NCBI GenBank assembly: GCA_964016885.1
Contig: OZ024748.1
Location: 46,500,001 to 46,564,000 of the forward strand
Source of the DNA: Eledone cirrhosa
Lineage: Eukaryota
DNA: 64,000 nt
Direction of reading: 5' to 3'
The position numbers and the translations under genes were made by a program. Each line of letters begins with the position of its first letter. Positions within the stretch are counted from its first letter, which is position 1. The notes beneath the pieces are model-generated. The model had not been told where the DNA came from and did no database searches. It was given only the letters and a program-made list of their open reading frames with translations. Below are positions 6,082 to 54,205 of this stretch, one piece after another.

Positions 6082-6175
<94 letters not shown>

Positions 6176-6380
6176 CGTTTCTGAATTTGTTTAGCAAGAT
6201 TCTTTATCTGAAAACGTGTGTTGAAACCGATATTGTTATACTTTGGGAGGGTCATGTTGCCAATAACAAACACATGCACCAGTTGCTTTCACTTCAATTT
6301 ATTATAATAAATTTATAAATTTAGGAATTTATAAATTTCCGTTTGGTTGGTTGGTTCCACAACCAGATGATTGTTTATAT

Positions 6381-9064
6381 AAGAAGATTACAGCTCACCA
6401 AAAAGCAAGCAGACAGGCTAAAACTAACACTAATTCTAAACATAAAAAAGAAGATTTATATAGAATTAAGTCATCAAGAAAAACATAAGCGTAACCTAAT
6501 ACAAAAAATAACTAAGATCACCACACCAAGAGAAAAATTAATATTTATAAACCTTATATGTCTTGAAGAAAAGTACATTGTTCAAGGATGTGACAAGCAC
6601 TTTAACAAGAAACTAAAGTGGCTCAAACAGATAAAACTAAATCAAGATACTTTAGAGATTATCGATAGATATCCCGACAAAATTGACGGTATAAATATGG
6701 CCAACATCTCATTAACAGATGAATACAACAACAACAACACAAATATATACGGCAACACTACGGTCGACTCTGATGAATTATCGATATTACAACTACCACG
6801 CAATTGCCGTCGCAGGTCGATGAACAAACAGAAGCACAATTTAGTATAACTAGATCTAAACTTAGAAATATTATAGAACAGTATAGCAAGAAGCATAATA
6901 GAATGGAGGCCCAACAACTGGGAGAAAAGTCTGCAAATGGCTTGCGTAAGCTCATGCAGCGCTCGCGTAATGGAGAGATTGCATGCTTTCCAACAGACAA
7001 GTCTGGCAGAATGTCGATTGACAGTCTGTCAAACGACATCCAGGCAATGCAACCCCACCTCACTAACACAAGAGAAGTAACACTACAAGAGCATGAGGAT
7101 AGAGAAAAAGCCCTCAATGCCCATATGGTGATGTGGACAAATATAATGCAGCCCAACAAAGAGACTGCCAACAACTTCCAGGCCTGGAACAATGACGTGC
7201 CAGCGTTGTATGGGCTTCGAAAAGACCATAAAACGAACAGTGACCCTGTCACAGGACCACCAACACGGCCAGTCTGTGGAGCTAACATTGCTAGTAACTA
7301 CAGACTTTCCTACTTCCTCTCCCTGATCATACGCCCCATCATTGAAATGTCTCCAGATATATGTGACAGCACGAAGGACCTCTTCAGCAGAATCTGCGAG
7401 AGTAACCGATCTAGGGACCTAACAAACTGCATAATAGGTAGTATGGATGTTGTGTCCCTATATCCATCTATTGACGTGGATTTTGCTGTGGAGAAATGCG
7501 TAGAAATGATCAGTGAGAGCAATGTTGAATTCCGTGGGATTGATACCAGTGAGCTGGGACTCCTACTTAAACTTACCTATAGTAATAATTATCTAGATAC
7601 ATATTGCCTTAGCAACCTGTGCCCTACAAGACCAGCAAGAGGCAGACCACCTACCATTACCTCAATGGCCAAGAAAACCCACACTGATAGATGGAACGGG
7701 TGGACCAGAGCCATACGGACCCCCGAAAACCACGATGAACTAAAGAAAATGATTGCACATGCGGTGGGGGCCAGCATAAAATTAAGCCTTAAGGAACATA
7801 TGTTCAAATTTAATGAAAAACATATGCCGAAGAGGAGGGAGCAGCCATTGGTGTTAGCATTGCAGGCGACATAGCTAACCTATTCATGGTATGCTGGGAC
7901 AATAGACTTAAACTTAAACTTAAAGAACAGTTAGAAGACCCCTTAACCCTGATAATGTACTCCCGCTACGTTGTAAAAACACCCCCACTAGAGAACAGTC
8001 AGGAATTAGAGAAAAACACCATGGAAAGCATCCAGCAAATAGCTAACTCCATCCACCAGAGTATTAGAGTTACTATAGACTACCCAAGCAAACACCCCAA
8101 CCATCGATTACATGTACTAGACACAGAGCTCTGGTTAGATACCATTAATAACAAAAAACAAATCCTCCATTCCCATTATGCCAAACCCATGACTTCCAAA
8201 TATCTGATCCACCGAAACTCAGCTGTTTCGGACCATACCAAAATCAACATACTGATTGCGGATTTGGTACGGGTGATGAGAAACGTGTCCCGCATGGGCA
8301 CCACAAAGAACTAGAGAGACACATACAACACTTCATCCACCGTATGCAGTTCTCTGGTTACAATCAGAGAGATAAAATCAGAGTATATAGAGGAGCCAGA
8401 ACCAAATGGGAAAAAATGGTAAATAATGACACAAATGGGACCTGACCCTTGTATAGGAGCAAATTTTGGAACTAGGAATAAGGTTAATAGAATAAACTCA
8501 TGGTATGATAGCAATACATACCAGAGTGTAATGTTCATTGATACAACCCCTAGAGGTGAATTAGCTTACAAATTCAGAAGGGCCGTAGATAAACATAAAC
8601 TCAATATTAGGATAGTAGAAAGACCAGGTACCTCCGTAAAAGCACTTATTAACAATACATATCCTTTTCAAAGACCTCCCTGTATAGATAAAAAATGTAT
8701 AATCTGTAAATTAAGCCCTCATATTAACTGTAAAACTAGAAATGTAGTATATAGCATAAGATGTACCGAAGGACAATGTAGAGAAAAGAATATAGTGTAC
8801 ATAGGTGAGACAGCACGTAGTAGAGGGGAACGGATAAATGAACACTCGCGAGACCTTCAAGATAGTAAAGAATCATCTGTACTCTACCAACAAGCTAAAA
8901 TAGAACATAAGGGTAAATTAGAGAACATAGAAATAAAAATAGAATTTACACACAGAAAAGACGCAATGTTTATACAAATCACAGAGGCAATAAACATAAA
9001 TGAACTCCAACCAAAATTAAATAGAAAACATGAATGGAACAGCAACATCACAACTTACAATTAA
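6381..9064 (+). pseudogene. PLE reverse transcriptase + C-terminal GIY-YIG endonuclease, frameshifted
   Basis: PTDKSG, PALYGLRKDHK, PTRPVC, motif A SMDVVSLYPSI, motif B EGAAIGVSIAGDIANLFM (after frameshift near 7818), YSRYV lacking DD, VLD; EN CxxxxCxxC...NVVYSIRC...YIGETARS...RINEH. Split over ORFs 6343, 6804, 7886 and 8426. Confidence 0.92.
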
Positions 9065-9261
9065 GGACAAAATGAAAACACACACGCACATAGAACAAAC
9101 AACCAACCAGTAACATGTAAATAAACGATAAATAAACAAATATAAACACACACAGACACCCGGATGTAACACATGCGCAAATTACCCACACAACATACAC
9201 AAAAACAAGATGGCGTAGGACAGAACAAAGGAGAGGCACAAATACAAAGAAAAGAATCCCC

Positions 9262-9305
9262 AGTCACTGAAGAGGTCACATAATGTGTGACGAAATAACT
9301 TTGAC
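9262..9305 (+). ncRNA. Type I hammerhead in PLE pLTR
   Basis: GUCA-CUGAAGA-G-GUCACA/UGUGAC-GAAA-UAAC-UU^UGAC; a second copy at 16369-16413 (-) has a CUA site. Confidence 0.8.
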
Positions 9306-9451
9306 AATATATAAACAATCATCTGGTTGTGGAACCAACCAACCAACCGGAAATTTATAAATTTATAAATTTATAAATTTATTATAATAAATTGAAGTGA
9401 AAGCAACTGGTGCGTGTATATCTTATTGGCAACATGACCCTCCCAAAGTAT

Positions 9452-9532
<81 letters not shown>

Positions 9533-17912: not shown

Positions 17913-18623
17913 TCATGTTAAAAATTGTGTGTTGAGTTCTAGTCTGTTATTGATTGGTGGTTGTGTTTTGTCTATAATCAGTGCTTCTTTAATTCTAAGA
18001 TTGCCGAGGTTTCTTTCCTTAGCTTCCCTCCTAACTATTATGTTTTTGTCAGTGTTGTTGCATTTCACTAGGTGTTTCTTAAATGAGGAAGCGTTAGTAT
18101 TGAGGTGTTCTTTCATTCTTATGTGAAGTGGTCTGGTGGTGCTACCTACGTAGAAGTTGCTGCATTTGTCGCACTCTAGTACGAGGTAAGCCTGGTGGCA
18201 TAGGTCTGTGTCGTTGATGGGGCAGTTGGCTAGCCTGCAGCGGCTGTCATGTCTGGTGGAGTGTCTTTTGGTTAGCTGTCCGCGTAGAGAATGTCCTGAG
18301 TGGGCTAGTTGGATATCTAGTCCCTCTCGTCTGATAGCTCTGCGGATGGCTGTTGTTGTTTCGTCACTGAAGTGATGGAGCTTCAGGAAGCAAGTGTTAG
18401 TGCCTCGGGTGTGGTGTACGCTGTTGTTTCTGGCACGGTTCGCGGTGGACGTCGGGTATCCGTTCAGTTTGTGTATCTCGGTGTGTGTATCTCGGGCTCC
18501 AGCGTCAGTGCATTTGTTCTGGATACGTGTTAGTTCGTTCCTTATGTATCCGAACTTAGCGCTGGTTGGAAGGGCCGAACTGAAATGTACGAACAGGTCC
18601 CTGCTGGCGGCTTTTTTATAGAA

Positions 18624-18625
<2 letters not shown>
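17913..18625 (-). pseudogene. 5'-truncated PLE: RT thumb + GIY-YIG endonuclease
   Basis: FYKKAASRDLFVHFSSALP, NGYP, CxxxxCxxxxxxxC, CDKCSNFYVGSTTRPLHIRMKEH, LRIKEALII...PPIN; begins at a TA tract. Confidence 0.9.
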
Positions 18626-18699
<74 letters not shown>

Positions 18700-18891
18700 A
18701 AAACGAAGAAAGTGTGGTAAGGAACCAGATGGACCATAACGCACCAGAGTACTCAATACTTAGGGTATTAGAGTGGGTAACAGGAAAATGTTTGACCCCG
18801 AGGGTAGAGTTCAAGCTGTTTCGATGGCTATTTTTGGACTAGAAATAGCCGTCGAAACGGCTTGAACTATGCCGTCGGGGTCAAACATTTT

Positions 18892-20508: not shown

Positions 20509-20561
20509 ATTTTATTATACATATTTCGGATGTACAAAAGTACGTCCTCATCAGACAAAAT
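20509..20561 (-). ncRNA. Type I hammerhead
   Basis: AUUUUGU-CUGAUGA-GGACGUAC/GUACAUCC-GAAA-UAUGUA-UA^AUAAAAU; second copy at 57669-57721 (+). Confidence 0.8.
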
Positions 20562-23000: not shown

Positions 23001-23185
23001 TTCATAATGTTGTTCTAAGTGATGTTGTAGTTGTTGGTAGTTAGGTTGGTGTTGTTGGTAGTAGTATTGTTGTTGTTAGTGATGTTGTTGCTAGTGTTGT
23101 TGTTGTTAGTGATGTTGTTGTTGGTAGTGTTGTTGTTGGAGGTGGGGTAGTTGCTAGTTGTCTTGTTGTTGTTAGTGATGTTGTA

Positions 23186-24816
23186 GTTGTTGGTAGTATT
23201 ATTTGTGGTGTTGTTGGTAGTGTTATTGGTGGTGTTGTTGGTAGTGTTATTGGTGGTGTTGTTGGTAGTGTTATTGGTGGTGGTGTTGGTAGTGTTACTG
23301 GTGGTGTTGTTGGTAGTGTTATTGGTGGTGTTGTTGGTAGTGTTATTGGTGGTGTTGTTGGTAGTGTTATTGGTGGTGTTGTTGGTAGTGTTATTGGTGG
23401 TGTTGTTGGTAGTGTTATTGGTGGTGTTGTTGGTAGTGTTATTGGTGGTGTTGTTGGTAGTGTTATTGGTGGTGGTGTTGGTAGTGTTACTGGTGGTGTT
23501 GTTGGTAGTGTTATTGGTGGTGTTGTTGGTAGTGTTATTGGTGGTGGTGTTGGTAGTGTTACTGGTGGTGTTGTCGGTAGTGTTATTGGTGGTGTTGTCG
23601 GTAGTGTTACTGGTGGTGTTGTTGGTAGTGTTATTGGTGGTGTTGTTGGTAGTGTTATTGGTGGTGTTGTTGGTAGTGTTATTGGTGGTGTTGTTGGTAG
23701 TGTTATTGGTGGTGGTGTTGGTAGTGTTATTGGTGGTGTTGTTGGTAGTGTTATTGGTGGTGTTGTCGGTAGTGTTACTGGTGGTGTTGTTGGTAGTGTT
23801 ATTGGTGGTGTTGTTGGTAGTGTTATTGGTGGTGTTGTCGGTAGTGTTACTGGTGGTGTTGTTGGTAGTGTTATTGGTGGTGTTGTTGGTAGTGTTACTG
23901 GTGGTGTTGTTGGTAGTGTTATTGGTGGTGTTGTTGGTAGTGTTATTGGTGGTGTTGTTGGTAGTGTTATTGGTGGTGTTGTTGGTAGTGTTATTGGTGG
24001 TGTTGTTGGTAGTGTTATTGGTGTTGTTGTTGGTAGTGTTATTGGTGGTGTTGTTGGTAGTGTTACTGGTAGTGTTGTTGGTAGTGTTATTGGTGGTGTT
24101 GTTGGTAGTGTTACTGGTAGTGTTGTTGGTAGTGTTATTGGTGGTGTTGTTGGTAGTGTTATTGGTGGTGTTGTTGGTAGTGTTATTGGTGGTGTTGTTG
24201 GTAGTGTTACTGGTAGTGTTGTTGGTAGTGTTACTGGTGGTGTTGTTGGTAGTGTTACTGGTAGTGTTGTTGGTAGTGTTATTGGTGGTGTTGTTGGTAG
24301 TGTTATTGGTGGTGTTGTTGGTAGTGTTATTGGTGGTGTTGTTGGTAGTGTTATTGGTGGTGTTGTTGGTAGTGTTATTGGTGGTGTTGTTGGTAGTGTT
24401 ATTGGTGGTGTTGTTGGTAGTGTTATTGGTGGTGTTGTTGGTAGTGTTATTGGTGGTGTTGTTGGTAGTGTTATTGGTGGTGTTGTTGGTAGTGTTATTG
24501 GTGGTGTTGTTGGTAGTGTTATTGGTGGTGGTGTTGGTAGTGTTACTGGTGGTGTTATTGGTAGTGTTATTGGTGGTGTTGTTGGTAGTGTTATTGGTGG
24601 TGTTGTTGGTAGTGTTATTGGTGGTGTTGTTGGTAGTCTTACTGGTGGTCTTGTTGGTAGTCTTACTGGTGGTCTTGTTGGTAGTGTTATTGGTGGTGTT
24701 GTTGGTAGTGTTATTGGTGGTGTTGTTGGTAGTGTTATTGGTGGTGTTGTTAGTAGTGTTATTGGTGGTGTTGTTGGTAGTGTTATTGGTGGTGTTGTTG
24801 GTAGTGTTACTGGTGG
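23186..24816. repeat. 24-bp minisatellite (GTTGGTAGTGTTATTGGTGGTGTT)n
   Basis: Direct reading; source of the spurious poly-VL ORF. Confidence 0.97.
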
Positions 24817-25410
24817 TGAGGGAGCATGGCCTAATGGTTTCAGTGTTGGTCTTACAGTCCTATTATCTCATTTCAACAGCTGAGTAAACTGGAGCAACGG
24901 GAAATAAAGTGTCTTGCTCAAGGAATTACTAAGTTAGTAATTTAATGTAAGGAACTTACATAAAATTATTTTGGAATATCTTAATTTAAATTGGAAACTT
25001 TTAAATGAGTATTTTATTCCATAGAATCAGAACCGGTTTTGGCCGGGTTGGCAACTAAAGGGTTAAGTGACTGAGAGTAGATGATCCCTCACTTCCACTG
25101 GACAGGTTGCAGGGGTAGCTCCAAGTATCTGCTGGTATTCACTCAGTGTGTGTGAGTGTGAGTATGCAGGTTCAACTGGTCTCCTCCAAGGTATATCTCG
25201 TTCGAGGTGTCTTAGGTGATTTTTAATGATAGGCACCCCAGTCCTATCATCTCATTTCTGCAGCTGAGTAAATTGGAGCAACGTGTAATAAAGTGTTTTA
25301 CTCAAGGAAACAACACATTACCCGGTCCGACAATTGAACTCACAACCTTTCCATTGCAAGCCCAATGCTCGCCATCGAAAGGTTGTGAGTTCAATTATCA
25401 GTGTTATCAC
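24816..25410. mobile_element. Second copy of the composite SINE-B block
   Basis: Colinear with 13157-13722. Confidence 0.85.
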
Positions 25411-34519: not shown

Positions 34520-35238
34520 CCTGACATACATATATGTATACAGACGTACAGTAGTATGTATATATATATACATACATGCATACATATATATATATATGCA
34601 CGTTTCGGTTTACCGAACATTTATTATAATGCTCGGTTTGTTTGTTTGTAATACATACTACTTGTTTGAAATACATACTACTGTACGTCTGTATACATAT
34701 ATGTATGTACGTATATATACATACATACTTACATTTAAGTAAGTGCCGTAGTAAGAGTGAGAAATAAAATTTCGTTTCATTCTATTCCATTTATCGTTTT
34801 CGGTGCGCCGAGCTGATTGAACTCACTCGATATTCAAATTAGGCTGATCAGCCGTTAATATGCATAAGGAAAGTATATACATTCAGACGTTCAACCATCT
34901 GGCAGGAAGGTATACGATGCTGACGATAGCTAATATAGCTTGAAACTAGTACATCGTTCCTGTGTCAGTGTTGAACAAAAAGGTGACGTGGTTGCCTAAA
35001 CGCTGTACGGCGTAATCCGGGCTGTTTGTTTGTCTACAAACAAACAAAGCAAGCATTATAATAAATGTTCGGTAAACCGATACGTGCATATATATATATA
35101 TGTGTGTGAATTGTATGTATATATATACATACTACTGTACGTATGTATACATATATGTATGTACGTATACATACATACTTACATTTAAGTAAGTGCCGTA
35201 TTAAGAGTGAGAAATGAAATTTCGTTTCATTCTATTAC

Positions 35239-35590: not shown

Positions 35591-37872
35591 TATATTAGAA
35601 AGATCGAGTATCGAAAAATCGGCGCACGAGTTCACGAAAAACGAAATTCGATATGAGCGGCAGAGGGCTCAATAATTCAGATGAATCAGAGCTATAACTA
35701 TCGTTAAAATACCGTCACATATAGAACAAGTCTACAATCAACCATACGATTTAAAATCGATAAAGGAAGATTCGGGCCAAACAGATAAAAAATATCAATA
35801 AAACAATACGTCAATAATTTAAATGAATGTAAAATCATACCCGGACCCACTAGAAAGGTGTTAAATCTAGCTTCATGGGTTTCTGTAAATCCTTAGACTG
35901 TACTCTATCAGCTCACATATAAATATAAAAGCCTACTAGAATAAGTGGAATGGAGTTTACGTTGTCAACGAGTTTTTTCCTGGCGGCAGAGGAGTCAACT
36001 AGCGGTGAAAAACGCACATGGCATTAGACAAGGGAGATGACCCCTATATCCGCGAAAACAATTCGAGTGAATGTGGAAATACACATATCGAATTAGAGTG
36101 CTCAATAGACATGTTAAAATAAAACAAAAGCTATTCATCACTCAATAGAATCGACAAAAAATGAGCAATAAAATTAACTGGTGGATAGCTATGTCCAGAG
36201 CTAAATATATTAGAAAGATCGAGTATCGAAAAATCGGCGCACGAGTTCACGAAAAACGAAATTCGATATGAGCGGCAGAGGGCTCAATAATTCAGATGAA
36301 TCAGAGCTATAACTATCGTTAAAATACCGTCACATATAGAACAAGTCTACAATCAACCATACGATTTAAAATCGATAAAGGAAGATTCGGGCCAAACAGA
36401 TAAAAAATATCAATAAAACAATACGTCAATAATTTAAATGAATGTAAAATCATACCCGGACCCACTAGAAAGGTGTTAAATCTAGCTTCATGGGTTTCTG
36501 TAAATCCTTAGACTGTACTCTATCAGCTCACATATAAATATAAAAGCCTACTAGAATAAGTGGAATGGAGTTTACGTTGTCAACGAGTTTTTTCCTGGCG
36601 GCAAAGGAGTCAACTAGCGGTGAAAAACGCACATGGCATTAGACAAGGGAGATGACCCCTATATCCGCGAAAACAATTCGAGTGAATGTGGAAATACACA
36701 TATCGAATTAGAGTGCTCAATAGACATGTTAAAATAAAACAAAAGCTATTCATCACTCAATAGAATCGACAAAAAATGAGCAATAAAATTAACTGGTGGA
36801 TAGCTATGTCCAGAGCTAAATATATTAGAAAGATCGAGTATCGAAAAATCGGCGCACGAGTTCACGAAAAACGAAATTCGATATGAGCGGCAGAGGGCTC
36901 AATAATTCAGATGAATCAGAGCTATAACTATCGTTAAAATACCGTCACATATAGAACAAGTCTACAATCAACCATACGATTTAAAATCGATAAAGGAAGA
37001 TTCGGGCCAAACAGATAAAAAATATCAATAAAACAATACGTCAATAATTTAAATGAATGTAAAATCATACCCGGACCCACTAGAAAGGTGTTAAATCTAG
37101 CTTCATGGGTTTCTGTAAATCCTTAGACTGTACTCTATCAGCTCACATATAAATATAAAAGCCTACTAGAATAAGTGGAATGGAGTTTACGTTGTCAACG
37201 AGTTTTTTCCTGGCGGCAGAGGAGTCAACTAGCGGTGAAAAACGCACATGGCATTAGACAAGGGAGATGACCCCTATATCCGCGAAAACAATTCGAGTGA
37301 ATGTGGAAATACACATATCGAATTAGAGTGCTCAATAGACATGTTAAAATAAAACAAAAGCTATTCATCACTCAATAGAATCGACAAAAAATGAGCAATA
37401 AAATTAACGGGTGGATAGCTATGTCCAGAGCTAAATATGTTAGAAAGATCGAGTATCGAAAAATCGGCGCACGAGTTCACGAAAAACGAAATTCGATATG
37501 AGCGGCAGAGGGCTCAATAATTCAGATGAATCAGAGCTATAACTATCGTTAAAATACCGTCACATATAGAACAAGTCTACAATCAACCATACGATTTAAA
37601 ATCGATAAAGGAAGATTCGGGCCAAACAGATAAAAAATATCAATAAAACAATACGTCAATAATTTAAATGAATGTAAAATCATACCCGGACCCACTAGAA
37701 AGGTGTTAAATCTAGCTTCATGGGTTTCTGTAAATCCTTAGACTGTACTCTATCAGCTCACATATAAATATAAAAGCCTACTAGAATAAGTGGAATGGAG
37801 TTTACGTTGTCAACGAGTTTTTTCCTGGCGGCAGAGGAGTCAACTAGCGGTGAAAAACGCACATGGCATTAG
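35591..37872 (-). mobile_element. 615-bp tandem array (3.7 copies), one hammerhead per unit
   Basis: Units start at 35591, 36206, 36821 and 37436, nearly identical; TA-flanked; no meaningful ORF. Confidence 0.92.
35839..35973 (-). ncRNA. U3-A8 variant hammerhead with expanded stem II loop (also 36454-36588, 37069-37203, 37684-37818)
   Basis: ACUCG-UUGACAA-C-GUAAAcUCC...GGAUUUAC-A-GAAA-CCCA..CUAGA/UCUAG-UGG-GUC^CGGGU; covaries with 52975-53110. Confidence 0.75.
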
Positions 37873-42022: not shown

Positions 42023-42061
<39 letters not shown>

Positions 42062-43044
42062 AACCAGTAAGACCCCGACAGCTGAGCTCAAGCCGTTTCG
42101 ACGGCTAATTCTGGACTAAATGAACATTTATCCTGGTATTAAAATAGCCGATCTTCTCAAGGGGTAATTCCATATATGGTCAAAGTGATTGTCAAAAATC
42201 AGTAGTAATTCTGTGGTTGCAAATTAGTAGGGGAGATGGTGGCTAAACCTGCCAGTAGGAGAAAGAGGGGAGGGGGTGGAGTAGACCCAATCAAGCGTTG
42301 GTAGTGCCAGCTACAGCTGGGCATGAGGTCAAAGAAGATACAGGGGAGGGGGAGGGGGAGGAAGTCGGAACGGTAGGTAGAACAATGGGGGGTAAAAATA
42401 GGAAAGAAAAAATACTGAGAGTGAAGAAAAGCAAATAAGTGTAAAGAAAAAATTAAATTCTACGACCTAGGTGTCAGGCTATTGTTAGGCGAGAATAAAA
42501 TAAAGAAAGAAAGAAAGAAGTAAATAAATAAATAAATAAATAAATAAGGAAATAAGTAAAAGAACTAGGTGGGACGAATTAGGCAAGGACCCTTTTAAGA
42601 GGTATAAGTACGTAAATGATACGGTGACTGGTCAACAAAAGGGGCCAAAATACTAAAGAGACTACCACGAAATAAACAATAAAGGTTTCCATCCCGGGCC
42701 GGCAACGACCCAGTGCAGCAAAGTGAACTTGTACGACATAATAATTCTGAGTCCCGGGAAAATATAACTAATGCTAACTCTAAAAGATCTAAAACAAGCT
42801 ACATGAAAGTTCGTACGAAATAAAGGTAGAATACGGAGAAATAAGTTCAGAATCCACCCCGCCCAGAAGAAAAGCGAAGCAAGAAATACTGAAACGAAAA
42901 AATAAGGCATAAGTGCCACTAAGAAATATAGAGGGCACAGAGAATAGTGGGAGCGGTCGGAAAAGGGGGGCAAGTATCCGGGGTCTAAGCCAACTGCTAT
43001 AAAGGGCGGAGTCCGCCAAATCTATCAAAGACTAGGGGAGGGGG

Positions 43045-43176
43045 GAAGAAACTTTACAAATGCTGTTTTCGACGGACCAACTCCTAAACAAGAAAGATGA
43101 ACTGGTTACTGCATGTAAACATAGATTGCGTAGGACTTACCTCGCCCTCAAACCCCATAATGACCCGGGGGGGTAG
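43045..43176 (+). pseudogene. C-terminal tail of PLE endonuclease (Hydra-clade-like)
   Basis: Translates EETLQMLFSTDQLLNKKDELVTACKHRLRRTYLALKPHNDPGG*, resembling the recalled LLNKRxELxxxCRH motif. Confidence 0.6.
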
Positions 43177-44272
43177 ACTAGGGCTATAACACCCCAGTTG
43201 CCGATTTTGCAATGGGTAACCCCTGCTTGCCAAGGAAGACGTAAGATCTTCTTTGTATTCTTTTATCGCATCCTTTATTTCCTTCCCCCCTCTCTCCTTT
43301 GTCCTTCTACCCCAGCTCTTCTCCTTTGTCGGCGTCTTTTCTCGCCCACCCGAGGCTGCCCTTTGGCCCCATGTAGCCTTAGTACCCCCACTCCCCCCTC
43401 CCCTAGTCTTTGATAGATTTGGCGGACTCCGCCCTTTATAGCAGTTGGCTTAGACCCCGGATACTTGCCCCCCTTTTCCGACCGCTCCCACTATTCTCTG
43501 TGCCCTCTATATTTCTTAGTGGCACTTATGCCTTATTTTTTCGTTTCAGTATTTCTTGCTTCGCTTTTCTTCTGGGCGGGGTGGATTCTGAACTTATTTC
43601 TCCGTATTCTACCTTTATTTCGTACGAACTTTCATGTAGCTTGTTTTAGATCTTTTAGAGTTAGCATTAGTTATATTTTCCCGGGACTCAGAATTATTAT
43701 GTCGTACAAGTTCACTTTGCTGCACTGGGTCGTTGCCGGCCCGGGATGGAAACCTTTATTGTTTATTTCGTGGTAGTCTCTTTAGTATTTTGGCCCCTTT
43801 TGTTGACCAGTCACCGTATCATTTACGTACTTATACCTCTTAAAAGGGTCCTTGCCTAATTCGTCCCACCTAGTTCTTTTACTTATTTCCTTATTTATTT
43901 ATTTATTTATTTATTTACTTCTTTCTTTCTTTCTTTATTTTATTCTCGCCTAACAATAGCCTGACACCTAGGTCGTAGAATTTAATTTTTTCTTTACACT
44001 TATTTGCTTTTCTTCACTCTCAGTATTTTTTCTTTCCTATTTTTACCCCCCATTGTTCTACCTACCGTTCCGACTTCCTCCCCCTCCCCCTCCCCTGTAT
44101 CTTCTTTGACCTCATGCCCAGCTGTAGCTGGCACTACCAACGCTTGATTGGGTCTACTCCACCCCCTCCCCTCTTTCTCCTACTGGCAGGTTTAGCCACC
44201 ATCTCCCCTACTAATTTGCAACCACAGAATTACTACTGATTTTTGACAATCACTTTGACCATATATGGAATT

Positions 44273-44366
44273 ACCCCTTGAGAAGATCGGCTATTTTAAT
44301 ACCAGGATAAATGTTCATTTAGTCCAGAATTAGCCGTCGAAACGGCTTGAGCTCAGCTGTCGGGGT
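44273..44366 (+). ncRNA. U3-A8 variant hammerhead (mirror copy 42072-42165 on minus)
   Basis: ACCCC-UUGAGAA-GAuCGGCUA...UAGCCGUC-GAAA-CGGC..GCU-GUC^GGGGU. Confidence 0.8.
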
Positions 44367-44486
44367 CTTACTGGTTCCTATTACCCACTCTACTACCTCA
44401 AGTATTGAGTACTTTGGTGCGTTATGGTCCACCTGGTTCCTTACCACATTTCCTTCGTTATATATATATATATATATATATATTAT

Positions 44487-45011: not shown

Positions 45012-48000
45012 ACGTTATTATTATTGAATAGCGTTTACGTTATTATTATTGAATAGCGTTTACCTTATTATTATTGAATAGCGTTTACCTTATTATTATT
45101 GAATAGCGTTTACCTTATTATTATTGAATAGCGTTTACCATATTATTATTGAATAGCGTTTACCTTATTATTATTGAATAGCGTTTATGTTATTATTGAA
45201 TAGCGTTTACCTTATTATTATCGAATAGCGTTTACCTTATTATTATTGAATAGCGTTTACCTTATTAGAGGGTTGGACACCATGCTTTGAATCATAGAGT
45301 TACGGCCCTTGCCATTCTGAGTTCGAATCCCGCCAAGGTTAACTTTGCCTTTCATCCTTACGGGGTCGATAAAATAAAGTACCAGTAATGCACTGGGTAA
45401 TTGCTGGCCTTGTGCCAAAAGTAGAAACAATTATTGAATAGCGTTTATGTTATTATTGAATAGCGTTTACCTTATTATTATTGAATAGCGTTTACCTTAT
45501 TATTATTGAATAGCGTTTACCTTATTATTATTGAATAGCGTTTACCTTATTATTATTGAATAGCGTTTACCTTATTATTATTGAATAGCGTTTACCTTAT
45601 TATTATTGAATAGCGTTTACCTTATTATTATTGAATAGCGTTTACCTTATTATTATTGAATAGCGTTTACCTTATTATTATTGAATAGCGTTTACCATAT
45701 TATTATTGAATAGCGTTTACCTTATTATTATTGAATAGCGTTTATGTTATTATTGAATAGCGTTTACCTTATTATTATTGAATAGCGTTTACCTTATTAT
45801 TATTGAATAGCGTTTACCTTATTATTATTGAATAGCGTTTACCATATTATTATTGAATAGCGTTTACCTTATTATTATTGAATAGCGTTTATGTTATTAT
45901 TGAATAGCGTTTACCTTATTATTATTGAATAGCGTTTACCTTATTATTATTGACTAGCGTTTACCTTATTATTATTGAATAGCGTTTATGTTATTATTGA
46001 ATAGCGTTTACCTTATTATTATTGAATAGCGTTTACCTTATTATTATTGAATAGCGTTTACCTTATTATTATTGAATAGCGTTTACCTTATTATTATTGA
46101 ATAGCGTTTACCTTATTATTATTGAATAGCGTTTACCATATTATTATTGAATAGCGTTTACCTTATTATTATTGAATAGCGTTTATGTTATTATTGAATA
46201 GCGTTTACCTTATTATTATTGAATAGCGTTTACCTTATTATTATTGAATAGCGTTTACCTTATTATTATTGAATAGCGTTTACCATATTATTATTGAATA
46301 GCGTTTACCTTATTATTATTGAATAGCGTTTACCTTATTATTATTGAATAGCGTTTACCATATTATTATTGAATAGCGTTTACCTTATTATTATTGAATA
46401 GCGTTTACCTTATTATTATTGAATAGCGTTTACGTTATTATTATTGAATAGCGTTTACCTTATTATTATTGAATAGCGTTTATGTTATTATTGAATAGCG
46501 TTTACCTTATTATTATTGAATAGCGTTTAACTTATTATTATTGAATAGCGTTTACCTTATTATTATTGAATAGCGTTTACCTTATTATTATTGAATAGCG
46601 TTTACGTTATTATTATTGAATAGCATTTACCTTATTATTATTGAATAGCGTTTACCTTATTATTATTGAATAGCGTTTACCTTATTATTATTGAATAGCG
46701 TTTACCTTATTATTATTGAATAGCGTTTACGTTATTATTATTGAATAGCGTTTACCTTATTATTATTGAATAGCGTTTACCTTATTATTATTGAATAGCG
46801 TTTACCTTATTATTATTGAATAGCGTTTACCTTATTATTATTGAATAGCGTTTACCTTATTATTATTGAATAGCGTTTACCTTATTATTATTGAATAGCG
46901 TTTACCTTATTATTATTGAATAGCGTTTACGTTATTATTATTGAATAGCGGTTACCTTATTATTATTGAATAGCGTTTACCTTATTATTATTGAATAGCG
47001 TTTACCTTATTATTATTGAATAGCGTTTACCTTATTATTATTGAATAGCGTTTACCTTATTATTATTGAATAGCGTTTACCTTATTATTATTGAATAGCG
47101 TTTAACTTATTATTATTGAATAGCGTTTACCTTATTATTATTGAATAGCGTTTACGTTATTATTATTGAATAGCGTTTACCTTATTATTATTGAATAGCG
47201 TTTATGTTATTATTGAATAGCGTTTACCTTATTATTATTGAATAGCGTTTAACTTATTATTATTGAATAGCGTTTACCTTATTATTATTGAATAGCGTTT
47301 ACCTTATTATTATTGAATAGCGTTTATGTTATTATTATTGAATACCGTTTACCTTATTATTATTGAATAGCGTTTACCTTATTATTATTGAATAGCGTTT
47401 ATGTTATTATTATTGAATAGCGTTTACCTTATTATTATTGAATAGCGTTTATGTTATTATTATGGAATAGCGTTTACGTTATTATTATTGAACAGCGTTT
47501 ACCTTATTATTATTGAATAGCGTTTACCTTATTATTATTGAATAGCGTCTATGTTATTATTATTGAATAGCGTTTACCTTATTATTATTGAATAGCGTTT
47601 ATGTTATTATATTTGAATAGCGTTTACCTTATTATTATTGAATAACGTTTACCTTATTATTATTGAATAGCGTTTACGTTATTATTATTGAATGGCGTTT
47701 ACCTTATTATTATTGAATAGCGTTTACGTTATTATTATTGAATAGCGTTTACCTTATTATTATTGAATAGCGTTTACCTTATTATTATTGAATAGCGTTT
47801 ACGTTATTATTATTGAATAGCGTTTATGTTATTATTATTGAATAGCCTTTACGTTATTATTATTGAATAGCCTTTACGTTATTATTATTGAATAGCCTTT
47901 ACGTTATTATTATTGAATAGCGTTTATGTTATTATTATTGAATAGCCTTTACGTTATTATTATTGAATAGCGTTTACGTTATTATTATTGAATAGCGTTT

Positions 48001-48482
48001 ATGTTATTATTATTGAATAGCGTTTACCTTATTGTTATTGAATAGCGTTTACCTTATTATTATTGAATAGCGTTTACGTTATTATTATTGAATAGCGTTT
48101 ACCTTATTATTATTGAATAACGTTTACGTTATTATTATTTAATAGCGTTTACCTTATTATTATTGAATAGCGTTTATGTTAATATTATTGAATAGCGTTT
48201 ACCTTATTATTATTGAATAGCGTTTACGTTATTATTATTGAATAGCGTTTACCTTATTATTATTGAATAGCGTTTATGTTATTATTATTGAATAGCGTTT
48301 ACCTTATTATTATTGAATAGCGTTTATGTTATTATTATTGAATAGCGTTTACCTTATTATTATTGAATAGCGTTTACCTTATTATTATTGAATAGCGTTT
48401 ACCTTATTATTATTGAATAGCGTTTACCTTATTATTATTGAATAGCCTTTACTTTATTATTATTGTATAGCGTTTACGTTAT
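45012..48482. repeat. 25-bp minisatellite (CCTTATTATTATTGAATAGCGTTTA)n, roughly 130 units
   Basis: Direct reading; 22-bp variants occur. Confidence 0.97.
45267..45433 (+). mobile_element. SINE family A inserted in the minisatellite
   Basis: 5'-truncated head; tail merges into ATTATTGAATAGCG. Confidence 0.9.
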
Positions 48483-48486
48483 TATA

Positions 48487-48675
48487 GAGGCCGGTGGATT
48501 GGCAGAATTGGTAGAGGGATGGACATGCTTTCCAGCATAGTTACGTCCCTTTACGATTTGAGTTCAAATTCCGCCAAGGTTAACTTTGCCCTTCATCCTT
48601 ACGAGGGCGATAAAATAAAGTACCAGTAATGTACTGGATAATTGCTGGCCTTGTGCCTAAAGTAGAAACAATTAT
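48487..48675 (+). mobile_element. SINE family A at the minisatellite end
   Basis: Full head; followed by ATTATTGAATAGCGT. Confidence 0.9.
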
Positions 48676-48751: not shown

Positions 48752-48786
<35 letters not shown>

Positions 48787-48991
48787 CATATATGTGTGTG
48801 TAACTATATATATATATATATATATATTAGAAATTGGAATAAATGCTCTGAAATAGCGATATATATGTGAATATAGACATAGAATATTCGAAAATATTCT
48901 GTATGTTTATAATAAACATTTTGAAGACCTAATCGCTATAGAATAGAATACGTCACGTATTACAATTAGATTCTCGATAAAAGCAAGGGAA

Positions 48992-49034
48992 GTAATCTAC
49001 GCGTTTCATTCTCGTTAGAAATCATCAGGACTAC
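48992..49034 (-). ncRNA. Type I hammerhead, first of 7 minus-strand copies at 310-bp spacing
   Basis: GUAGUC-CUGAUGA-U-UUCU(aacg)AGAA-U-GAAA-CGCG-UA^GAUUAC. Confidence 0.85.
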
Positions 49035-51211
49035 ATATCCAGTGCTTTTATCGAGAATGACACAGCTAGAGACTTATAGAATACTTAGCTGTGTACAGGA
49101 ACTGGTTTGAAAGAGCGGTTGCCGGTCCGGCAGAAATTAGAAATTGGAATAAATGCTCTGAAATAGCGATATATATGTGAATATAGACATAGAATATTCG
49201 AAAATATTCTGTATGTTTATAATAAACATTTTGAAGACCTAACCGCTATAGAATAGAATACGTCACGTATTACAATTAGATTCTCGATAAAAGCAAGGGA
49301 AGTAATCTACGCGTTTCATTCTCGTTAGAAATCATCAGGACTACATATCCAGTGCTTTTATCGAGAATGACACAGCTAGAGACTTATAGAATACTTAGCT
49401 GTGTACAGGAACTGGTTTGAAAGAGCGGTTGCCGGTCCGGCAGAAATTAGAAATTGGAATAAATGCTCTGAAATAGCGATATATATGTGAATATAGACAT
49501 AGAATATTCGAAAATATTCTGTATGTTTATAATAAACATTTTGAAGACCTAATCGCTATAGAATAGAATACGTCACGTATTACAATTAGATTCTCGATAA
49601 AAGCAAGGGAAGTAATCTACGCGTTTCATTCTCGTTAGAAATCATCAGGACTACATATCCAGTGCTTTTATCGAGAATGACACAGCTAGAGACTTATAGA
49701 ATACTTAGCTGTGTACAGGAACTGGTTTGAAAGAGCGGTTGCCGGTCCGGCAGAAATTAGAAATTGGAATAAATGCTCTGAAATAGCGATATATATGTGA
49801 ATATAGACATAGAATATTCGAAAATATTCTGTATGTTTATAATAAACATTTTGAAGACCTAATCGCTATAGAATAGAATACGTCACGTATTACAATTAGA
49901 TTCTCGATAAAAGCAAGGGAAGTAATCTACGCGTTTCATTCTCGTTAGAAATCATCAGGACTACATATCCAGTGCTTTTATCGAGAATGACACAGCTAGA
50001 GACTTATAGAATACTTAGCTGTGTACAGGAACTGGTTTGAAAGAGCGGTTGCCGGTCCGGCAGAAATTAGAAATTGGAATAAATGCTCTGAAATAGCGAT
50101 ATATATGTGAATATAGACATAGAATATTCGAAAATATTCTGTATGCTTATAATAAACATTTTGAAGACCTAATCGCTATAGAATAGAATACGTCACGTAT
50201 TACAATTAGATTCTCGATAAAAGCAAGGGAAGTAATCTACGCGTTTCATTCTCGTTAGAAATCATCAGGACTACATATCCAGTGCTTTTATCGAGAATGA
50301 CACAGCTAGAGACTTATAGAATACTTAGCTGTGTACAGGAACTGGTTTGAAAGAGCGGTTGCCGGTCCGGCAGAAATTAGAAATTGGAATAAATGCTCTG
50401 AAATAGCGATATATATGTGAATATAGACATAGAATATTCGAAAATATTCTGTATGTTTATAATAAACATTTTGAAGACCTAATCGCTATAGAATAGAATA
50501 CGTCACGTATTACAATTAGATTCTCGATAAAAGCAAGGGAAGTAATCTACGCGTTTCATTCTCGTTAGAAATCATCAGGACTACATATCCAGTGCTTTTA
50601 TCGAGAATGACACAGCTAGAGACTTATAGAATACTTAGCTGTGTACAGGAACTGGTTTGAAAGAGCGGTTGCCGGTCCGGCAGAAATTAGAAATTGGAAT
50701 AAATGCTCTGAAATAGCGATATATATGTGAATATAGACATAGAATATTCGAAAATATTCTGTATGTTTATAATAAACATTTTGAAGACCTAATCGCTATA
50801 GAATAGAATACGTCACGTATTACAATTAGATTCTCGATAAAAGCAAGGGAAGTAATCTACGCGTTTCATTCTCGTTAGAAATCATCAGGACTACATATCC
50901 AGTGCTTTTATCGAGAATGACACAGCTAGAGACTTATAGAATACTTAGCTGTGTACAGGAACTGGTTTGAAAGAGCGGTTGCCGGTCCGGCAGAAATTAG
51001 AAATTGGAATAAATGCTCTGAAATAGCGATATATATGTGAATATAGACATAGAATATTCGAAAATATTCTGTATGTTTATAATAAACATTTTGAAGACCT
51101 AATCGCTATAGAATAGAATACGTCACGTATTACAATTAGATTCTCGATAAAAGCAAGGGAAGTATTCTATAAGTCTCTAGCTGTGTCATTCTCGATAAAA
51201 GCACTGGATAT

Positions 51212-51254
51212 GTAGTCCTGATGATTTCTAACGAGAATGAAACGCGTAGATTAC
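51212..51254 (+). ncRNA. Type I hammerhead, first of 3 plus-strand copies (also 51522-51564, 51832-51874)
   Basis: Same motif as 48992-49034. Confidence 0.85.
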
Positions 51255-51994
51255 TTCCCTTGCTTTTATCGAGAATCTAATTGTAATACGTGACGTATTC
51301 TATTCTATAGCGATTAGGTCTTCAAAATGTTTATTATAAACATACAGAATATTTTCGAATATTCTATGTCTATATTCACATATATATCGCTATTTCAGAG
51401 CATTTATTCCAATTTCTAATTTCTGCCGGACCGGCAACCGCTCTTTCAAACCAGTTCCTGTACACAGCTAAGTATTCTATAAGTCTCTAGCTGTGTCATT
51501 CTCGATAAAAGCACTGGATATGTAGTCCTGATGATTTCTAACGAGAATGAAACGCGTAGATTACTTCCCTTGCTTTTATCGAGAATCTAATTGTAATACG
51601 TGACGTATTCTATTCTATAGCGATTAGGTCTTCAAAATGTTTATTATAAACATACAGAATATTTTCGAATATTCTATGTCTATATTCACATATATATCGC
51701 TATTTCAGAGCATTTATTCCAATTTCTAATTTCTGCCGGACCGGCAACCGCTCTTTCAAACCAGTTCCTGTACACAGCTAAGTATTCTATAAGTCTCTAG
51801 CTGTGTCATTCTCGATAAAAGCACTGGATATGTAGTCCTGATGATTTCTAACGAGAATGAAACGCGTAGATTACTTCCCTTGCTTTTATCGAGAATCTAA
51901 TTGTAATACGTGACGTATTCTATTCTATAGCGATTAGGTCTTCAAAATGTTTATTATAAACATACAGAATATTTTCGAATATTCTATGTCTATA

Positions 51995-52086
<92 letters not shown>

Positions 52087-53334: not shown

Positions 53335-54205
53335 AAAAGAAAATTTCGCCCTACATGGCTGAATACAATAAATGTAATCTGAGTTTTTCGAATGTTAATA
53401 ATAACATTCGATTCATTTGCAATTTTGCAAACAAGCCTCAATTTTATAGCCATGTCAGGAGAATGAACACTTCAGGAGAGTGAACGATGAGCTGTACTGA
53501 TGAAGGGTGATACCCAGAAACATTAGTGTCTGCAGTTCTGTTCGCATACCAACACAAGAGCAAGAATGAAGTGTTCATTCTCCTGACATGGCTATAAAAT
53601 TGAGAATTGTTTGCAAAATTGCAAACGAATCGAATGTTATTATTAATATTCGCTTTCCAGCAGAGTTACGTCTCTTTACGGTTTGAGTTCAAATCCCGCC
53701 GAGGTTAACTTTGCCTTTCATCCTTACGGGGTCAATAAAATAAAGTACCAGTAATGTACTGGGTAATTGCTGGCCTTGTGCCAAAAGAAGAAACAATTAT
53801 TAATATTCGAAAAACTCCGATTACTTTTATTATATTCAGCCATGTAGAGCTAAATTTTTTTTTTATTTCAATTTGGCAAAGCCGGCCATTTATCGCTCGT
53901 ATACAGGAAACTGACTGATCAGCCAGTGTGGTAATATGCAAATCAGGCCGATCAGTCACTGTGTAATTTTGAAAATAGCATATATTTTCACTAGCTCTGA
54001 CAGCTTGGTAGGTGAACAGTGAGCTGTACTGATGAAGGGTGATACCCAGAAACACTAGTGTCTGCAGTTCTGTTCGCACGCCAACATAAGAGCAAGAATG
54101 AAGTGTTCATTCTGCTGACATGGCTATAAACTTGAGACTTGTTTGCAAAATTGTAAACGAATCGAATGTTATTATTAATATTCGAAAAACTCCGACTACA
54201 TTTAT
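53335..54205 (+). mobile_element. 375-bp-period dimer with inverted 5' piece, two hammerheads (53489-53538, 54021-54070) and a SINE insertion
   Basis: GAGCUGUA-CUGAUGA-A-GGGU/ACCC-A-GAAA-CACUAGUG-UC^UGCAGUUC; SINE 53653-53795 flanked by ATTATTAATATTCG TSD. Confidence 0.88.

Follow-up and report, generated by a model that had tools for sequence, protein, structure and literature searches.

How a tandem array of short non-coding repeats comes to stand in a genome as two arms that meet head-to-head, and what fixes its two ends, is the question raised by a locus of Eledone cirrhosa. It lies in a stretch of 64,000 nucleotides (contig OZ024748.1 of assembly GCA_964016885.1, positions 46,500,001 to 46,564,000, forward strand), the whole of which is referred to below as the window. 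We propose that the array is an insertion of a non-long-terminal-repeat (non-LTR) retrozyme, probably made by the enzyme of a Penelope-like element (PLE) that primed from both target ends, likely on one monomer RNA circle.

The initial annotation of about ten near-identical non-coding 310-bp units in inverted arrays was borne out by tandem-repeat analysis, which gave a 310-bp period (99% matches) that repeats 7.6 times at 48826-51169 and, in inverted orientation, 2.7 times at 51160-52007, parsed as arms of 7.55 and 2.71 units. The whole array carries just two single-unit substitutions, and the GC content of the unit is 33-35%. No open reading frame (ORF) of at least 100 amino acids was present within the array, the reverse transcriptase (RT) plus GIY-YIG ORF of an autonomous PLE being absent there, and it has no terminal repeats other than the units, primer-binding sites and polypurine tracts not having been searched for. 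Units are numbered from the predicted cleavage site of their hammerhead ribozyme, position 1 being the G of GAUUAC. The features of the array are, in window coordinates:

48770..48825: left (TA)n target microsatellite
48826..51164, minus strand: arm A, 7.55 units, hammerhead on the minus strand
51160..51164: joint, 5-nt overlap AAGTA common to both arms, which meet head-to-head
51160..51998, plus strand: arm B, 2.71 units, hammerhead on the plus strand
51188..51276, plus strand: perfect 16-bp helix around the hammerhead (arms 51188-51203 and 51261-51276)
51212..51254, plus strand: type I hammerhead, example copy recurring each 310 bp, from motif parsing, activity predicted
51378..51387, plus strand: site B, internal copy (unit positions 130-139, ATATATAT), end point of one arm in nearly all insertions
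51388..51420, plus strand: tail between sites B and A, internal copy, found at one end only per insertion
51413..51420, plus strand: site A, internal copy (unit positions 165-172)
51999..52044: right (TA)n target microsatellite

Arm A runs from unit position 172 at 48826 (its outer end, at site A, with the tail present) to position 4 at 51164, its inner end falling at position 4-8 when the overlap is allowed for. Arm B runs from position 222 at 51160 (inner end 222-226) to position 130 at 51998 (site B, with the tail absent).

Every unit parses with a type I hammerhead that has a palindromic stem III and is enclosed by the 16-bp helix, as first annotated; the assignment rests on motif parsing, Rfam calling no hammerhead in the unit at its gathering threshold. 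In the example copy the core CUGAUGA lies at 51218-51224 and GAAA at 51239-51242, GUA precedes the predicted cleavage site after 51248, and stem I is formed by GUAGUC/GAUUAC. The motif has two weak points, a stem III of 1 bp with the palindrome ACGCGU and a U-U mismatch at the base of stem II. A 2-bp stem III within the monomer was ruled out, as the stem cannot close with two pairs, and the suggestion that the palindrome permits dimeric cleavage fits this model; self-pairing of ACGCGU is predicted at -7.5 kcal/mol. The minimum-energy fold of the monomer does not contain the full hammerhead core (over one and the same stretch of 105 nt, -20.2 versus -31.9 kcal/mol). The hammerhead pairing is preserved by covariation across related families, in which U3-A8 can replace C3-G8 and the stems differ in sequence yet stay paired. 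We do not claim selection on the catalytic core within the family, for which no array-wide core change was seen among 27 variant types against about one expected. Motifs of three further hammerhead families occur in the window, at 53497 (+) and 54029 (+), at 34920 (+) and at 20554 (-), and at least eight motif families were present in the loci fetched from the same genome.

The array thereby conforms to the non-LTR retrozymes of Metazoa, the identity first given to it, which are tandem non-coding units of 150-450 bp with a type I hammerhead and a GC content below 50% (PMC7229834; Li et al. 2026, 10.64898/2026.07.22.740005); the Eledone family likewise has 310-bp units, a hammerhead in each, a low GC content and dispersed copies. 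Its hammerhead shares a 1-bp stem III and palindromic loop with HHR_Amex1 of the axolotl, and the U-U pair at stem II with HHR_Amex2; axolotl retrozyme hammerheads with such weak features cleave better as dimers (PMC7229834). Expression and circularisation have been shown for metazoan retrozymes (PMC7229834; Li et al. 2026), whereas the Eledone family is known from genomic DNA. A head-to-head two-arm build, fixed paired ends and array-wide haplotypes are not described for metazoan retrozymes in the available text of these two sources.

Further copies were located by pattern searches of the same genome, and the loci fetched are designated by L-numbers. A 22-mer from the hammerhead of one haplotype had 4,583 exact matches in the 3.0-Gb genome and was present in 237 of 838 sampled units, from which about 16,000 units are estimated genome-wide; at about nine units per insertion, this corresponds to roughly 1,500-1,800 insertions. 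Exact ends numbered 1,240 for A and 1,262 for B. The main sample, with all loci on contig C1, comprised 10 arrays from the first 100 matches of the 22-mer, 60 loci from the first 100 site-B matches and 20 from site-A matches without a listed B partner. Five parsed groups (duplicates or sister-family fragments) and groups shorter than 60 bp, such as L083, were dropped. The resulting 91 insertions, including that of the window, consist of 75 simple head-to-head, 14 single-arm and two complex ones, with a mean arm length of 4.6 units and a divergence of about 4e-4 per base across the sampled arrays. The unit is also present in public sequencing runs of four studies, none recorded as RNA, one of which may be the assembly source. 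A 340-nt self-looping contig in each of runs X1 and X2 was not used as evidence, a circle and a tandem array being indistinguishable there.

The outer ends of the arms follow a strict rule. Among the 75 simple head-to-head insertions, A ends fell at positions 165 (48 insertions), 167 (9), 170 (5) and 172 (5), and B ends at 130 (39) and 139 (21). One arm ended at A and the other at B in 91 of the 94 two-arm insertions with both ends visible, a count that sets aside seven insertions cut by a locus edge, 20 with a single arm and four complex groups. In two of the exceptions, both from haplotypes with a mutated site B, A is combined with a shifted B; the third (L160) is A+A. As selection by a B end cannot find A+A insertions, the fair test is given by 32 loci chosen by internal sequence, which comprised 30 A+B, one A with a shifted B and one A+A (p=8e-9 against free choice). 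Sites A (~165) and B (~130-139) are 35 nt apart, and this gap corresponds to the tail of PLEs. At least four TA in 12 nt were found on both flanks in 60 of the 75 insertions, many of these loci having been selected with TA in the pattern; among 11 loci selected without TA, all 10 two-arm ones were TA-rich on both flanks. Any target-site duplication is hidden by the (TA)n, and at L031, L032 and L036 the two flanks share imperfect TA motifs. The TA register at B ends was not used, given that the loci overlap and the selecting pattern forces the register.

Insertions of endonuclease-bearing (EN+) PLEs show an inverted 5'-truncated copy placed head-to-head, microsatellite targets and a tail of 30-40 bp that often extends just one of the ends, and non-autonomous multicopy head-to-tail derivatives such as MRC1 are known (Craig et al. 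2021, PMC8557442; Arkhipova et al. 2013, PMC3846280). The Eledone insertions resemble these in their inverted head-to-head arms, one-sided 35-nt tail and (TA)n target; unlike EN+ PLEs, they lack an RT-endonuclease ORF and both of their arms are multi-unit tandem arrays. PLEs are present in the same genome, with RT and GIY-YIG pieces in the window and in the fetched loci, the Pfam match to GIY-YIG lying just under the cut-off (E=3e-4). In vitro, the anole Poseidon protein PAc, a predicted dimer, cuts and extends both target strands and starts reverse transcription at two internal sites that bound a 30-40-nt tail (Frangieh et al. 2024, PMC11167929). Sites A and B are like these start sites in bounding the tail, in lying 3' of the hammerhead site and in having an AT-rich target. 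The assay, in the text available, involves linear templates only and no pairing rule, whereas insertions in the Eledone genome have one A and one B each (PMC11167929). We found no description of two-arm retrozyme arrays with paired ends in the literature, most subscription journals lying outside the coverage of the search. In twin priming by L1, two target-primed complementary DNAs (cDNAs) meet head-to-head via short overlaps, and the Eledone arms also join head-to-head through short overlaps. They differ from L1 in that they have no poly(A) end, the second start site is fixed, and the first arm does not stop at the start of the second, the inner ends of A arms being spread across all ten bins of the unit.

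What served as template can be read from sequence variants. In 44 of 47 insertions in which both arms exceed two units, the two arms carry the same haplotype, against a match of 0.154 between arms of different insertions (21 haplotypes); the exceptions are L105, L119 and L059, the last with its variant obscured by a gap in the alignment. The lengths of the two arms are correlated (rho 0.30, p=0.011, n=72), and unit-length variants of 311 bp and 308 bp continue through both arms. Position 310 is changed in every unit of both arms in four arrays of four backgrounds (14/14, 4/4, 9/9 and 20/20 units), to T in L159 and L160 and to G in L161 and L162, each change being unique to its array genome-wide, and 176T>C is array-wide in L154 and L164, again on different backgrounds. 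Twelve further arrays of the 210A lineage are uniform for 210A and have no single-unit variant in common; three of them have a further all-unit variant, two of these being just two units long. Single-unit variants at register positions spanned by both arms occurred in one arm in 57 cases and in both in nine. Across 821 passes over the cleavage site, the sole change at positions 308-310 or 1 was 1G>T in two units of L050, and such clean read-through favours a sealed circle over end-to-end jumps. The proposal in the initial annotation that a PLE mobilised the element by repeated copying of a monomer-length template fits these family data (A+B ends, one haplotype, array-wide variants), and we infer that circles were the usual template, with multimers and template switches in the minority.

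In L161 (9 units) and L162 (20 units), every hammerhead has a G before the cleavage site. Under the NUH rule a G in this place should not cleave, and all hammerheads of both arrays are predicted to be unable to do so. We do not claim position 310 as a hot spot of ligation scars; arrays with an array-wide change number four at 310, none at control position 199, two at 176 and four at 88. Of three types of array-wide indel sampled (loci L041, L046, L087, L111, L084 and L096), two are 1-nt insertions at most 4 nt from the cleavage site, and these are possibly ligation scars. The long mosaic L157/L158 was rejected as the origin of the 210A lineage because in L157 the units with 210A have 14A as well, and the lone 88T unit in L141, which also has 309G, is doubtful as source of the 88T arrays. 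In the mosaic itself (G000:C1, 217.795-217.810 Mb), one arm is about 47 units long and many variants recur along it, as in an array becoming a locally expanding satellite.

The steps envisaged are as follows. Arrays would be transcribed as multimers, which the weak hammerhead would cleave as a dimer via ACGCGU, and a host ligase would close the monomers; a lone circle, having no dimer partner, would stay closed. A dimeric PLE RT-endonuclease would then bind sites A and B of one RNA and extend both target strands. The PLE RT is not known to have RNase H, and both cDNAs would roll with strand displacement and stop at random, after which repair would join the two cDNA ends. The copying of circles into tandem cDNA by a PLE RT is a hypothesis stated in PMC7229834, whose Supplementary Figure S9 draws an integration model that may already contain part of this scheme. 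The more specific arrangement, in which the dimeric enzyme holds one circle at two sites 35 nt apart, one per active site and both rolling, while the hammerhead cuts multimers and is silent in the lone circle, we advance tentatively, as a possibility.

Several observations weigh against this account. RNA, circles and cleavage are predicted here from genomic sequence, and no PLE with the same tail was found in the examined loci. PAc worked without cleavage by the hammerhead, used mainly unprocessed RNA as substrate and had the same start sites for both strands (PMC11167929). Unit-specific variants stand in the same register in both arms of L070, L080 and L093, which a monomer circle cannot produce, and the haplotype changes along an arm in L105, L169 and L174. 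Variants seen once in the sample were taken as private at first, a view rejected when they turned out to be small lineages (88A>T in four arrays and one lone unit, 210C>A in 327 units), so that the 11 of 57 arrays with a sample-singleton variant overstate the bottleneck at each birth. The longest arrays (L047, L050, L051, L074 and L157/158) repeat variants within an arm, and some of their length arose after insertion. Unshared single-unit variants may also be post-insertion changes or assembly errors, which weakens the 57:9 ratio.

The alternative that survives best keeps the two-site PLE priming and takes the template to have usually been an uncleaved linear multimer from the parent array, a circle being unnecessary. 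It accommodates the in-register variants of L070, L080 and L093, the stepwise haplotype change in L169, the structural weakness of the hammerhead and the preference for unprocessed RNA (PMC11167929), and the correlation between arm lengths fits a common finite transcript. A multimer cannot, however, readily make array-wide changes confined to one array, as seen four times at 310 and twice at 176. The uniformity of the twelve further 210A arrays and the excess of unshared variants also speak against it, as does L100 (11+13 units), which exceeds every other 88T array in length. We regard it as unlikely.

Two other routes appear improbable to a similar degree. In the first, short two-arm insertions, each from one template, were later lengthened in place by unequal crossover, a route of satellite birth discussed by Li et al. 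(2026, 10.64898/2026.07.22.740005). Array-wide variants would be explained as well by this process, and variants repeated within an arm in L164 and in the longest arrays named above are what it would leave; most arrays, however, have variants in a single unit or none, including such long ones as L095 (24 units) and L054 (14 units), and the low divergence across arrays leaves little time. In the second, a single cDNA was made first and then copied itself by fold-back or strand switch, as in the self-priming model (PMC3846280). This would yield the same haplotypes in both arms, the in-register variants and the near-perfect hairpin with a 5-nt spacer at L163, and short overlaps are indeed enriched at joints, with zero overlap in 10 of 48 joints without inserted bases against 53% at random. 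Yet the inner ends of the two arms are unrelated (within 10 nt of each other in 6 of 75 insertions, about five expected), either arm can be longer (A in 39 of 72), at L105 neither arm can have been copied from the other, and the model leaves unexplained why the second arm should terminate at the other of the two fixed sites. The joints, furthermore, are not palindromes of the kind behind the self-priming model (PMC3846280). The single strand switch first suggested for the window fits worse than two separate primings, both outer ends being of 3' type at two fixed sites.

The joints bear repair signatures. Inserted bases (1-272) are carried by 27 of 75, and at L051:1349-1620 the joint has captured 272 bases of unrelated sequence. 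The 5-nt microhomology reported for the window is real as an AAGTA overlap but ordinary, four of the 48 joints without inserted bases having one of this length.

The initial annotation had further placed the inversion point at the ribozyme cleavage site. The coordinates given for the block, which stops at AAGTA (51160-51164) 3 nt short of the predicted site (51167|51168), are accurate, the overlap placing the true break 3-8 nt short; the right arm has its inner end (222-226) about 85 nt away from the site, so that the claim is true of one arm only. As a family rule, with RT running off a cleaved 5' end and then switching strands, it is very improbable. Besides the window arm, it has in its favour L163 (G000:C3 near 172.484 Mb; 2294-2596), where each arm breaks off precisely at position 1 during its first pass and the two are linked by a 5-base joiner, as a cleaved linear RNA would give; the chance of such a both-arm stop is about 2%, given some six loci with one such arm. 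A survey of breakpoints across loci found them scattered, the outcome that the initial annotation had itself named as refuting, and for the family as a whole the rule is refuted: inner ends fell at positions 1-10 in 4 of 150 cases against 4.8 expected (binomial p=0.72), two of these four (L087 and L120) are parser artefacts in which variant units read through the site, and ten bins of inner-end position do not depart from uniformity (p=0.11). Genome-wide, a pattern requiring a non-A before position 1 had 62 matches, 47 of them in the four arrays with an array-wide change and 15 isolated, against 27 isolated matches for the control at position 199. Seven arms in six loci (L141, L163 with both arms, L169, L170, L171 and L173) terminate precisely at the site and have a non-A before it, against 5-6 expected. 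The coincidence is due to chance at the level of the family, and chance is most likely also why arm A stops near the site in the window, although run-off at a cleaved 5' end remains conceivable there and may have occurred at L163. The latter locus lends weak support to cleavage at the predicted site in vivo and fits fold-back too; a rearranged second copy lies alongside, joined to PLE-like RT sequence. That the inversion is an assembly or read fold-back artefact is hardly credible: the joint in the window is known from the assembly, but the same build recurs at more than 90 loci with a non-random A+B rule, the joints are asymmetric rather than symmetric hairpins, and the flanks of the window array are not mirror images of each other.

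A PLE that could have supplied the enzyme was looked for in the same genome. Searches with the unit (low-stringency BLAST) and with pieces of PLEs (tblastn) found, among the matches listed, no PLE ORF joined to the family tail in L031-L140. A tail pattern that skips most internal units had 3,793 matches genome-wide, and the 20 of these that were fetched contained no partner PLE, only older non-coding relatives. In these sister families the unit measures about 321 bp and is about 77% identical to the 310-bp unit over positions 59-235 of the latter; the insertions are likewise two-armed with matching ends, and the hammerheads differ. Copies of them lie at L101:591-1123, L119:4966-5769, L079:3015-3518 and L033:3860-4220, some with the U3-A8 core.

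Two PLE-like elements of the window also have a one-sided extension. The first, at 6170-9455 (+), is a broken PLE with RT and GIY-YIG in three ORF pieces between (TA)n tracts; its 3' repeat contains a hammerhead-like core, and the inverted 5' arm is extended by about 58 nt that have no counterpart at the 3' end. We take this element to be Neptune-like from its Cys motif, a label backed by one passage in the literature. The second, at 42057-44458, has inverted 990-bp arms that are 100% identical around a 345-bp centre, with about 80 extra bases in the right arm before the (TA)n, and is a very young PLE-type two-arm insertion of another family. A C-terminal piece of a PLE-like ORF with a GIY-YIG-type motif lies at 17913-18752 (-), with a 79% identical copy in L112. 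Other repeats of the window comprise a 615-bp tandem array at 35591-37872 (3.7 copies, 99.7% identical, between (TA)n tracts), in which the motif pattern found no hammerhead, a 24-bp minisatellite of 74 copies at 23047-24818, and a 25-bp minisatellite of 139 copies at 45015-48485, which adjoins the retrozyme array with a repeat resembling a short interspersed nuclear element at ~48488-48675 in between.

The retrozyme class and the insertion signature of PLEs are already known, and the value of the present family lies in the A+B rule and the evidence for a single template. The re-entry of retrozyme circles into the genome was hypothesised in PMC7229834 and its mechanism called unresolved by Li et al. 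(2026), while the origin of tandem, inverted and tailed PLE insertions has been named as an open task (PMC8557442). With some 1,500-1,800 nearly unmutated insertions, a strict end rule and lineage-marking variants, the Eledone family makes both questions countable, through the A+B rule, the genealogy of templates and arrays with all hammerheads predicted dead, and it supplies exact RNA start sites for an in vitro assay. If the proposed reading is true, these arrays would document rolling-circle target-primed reverse transcription in the genome, and a single step would account for three traits of PLEs in general, namely tandem copies, an inverted arm and a tail on one side.

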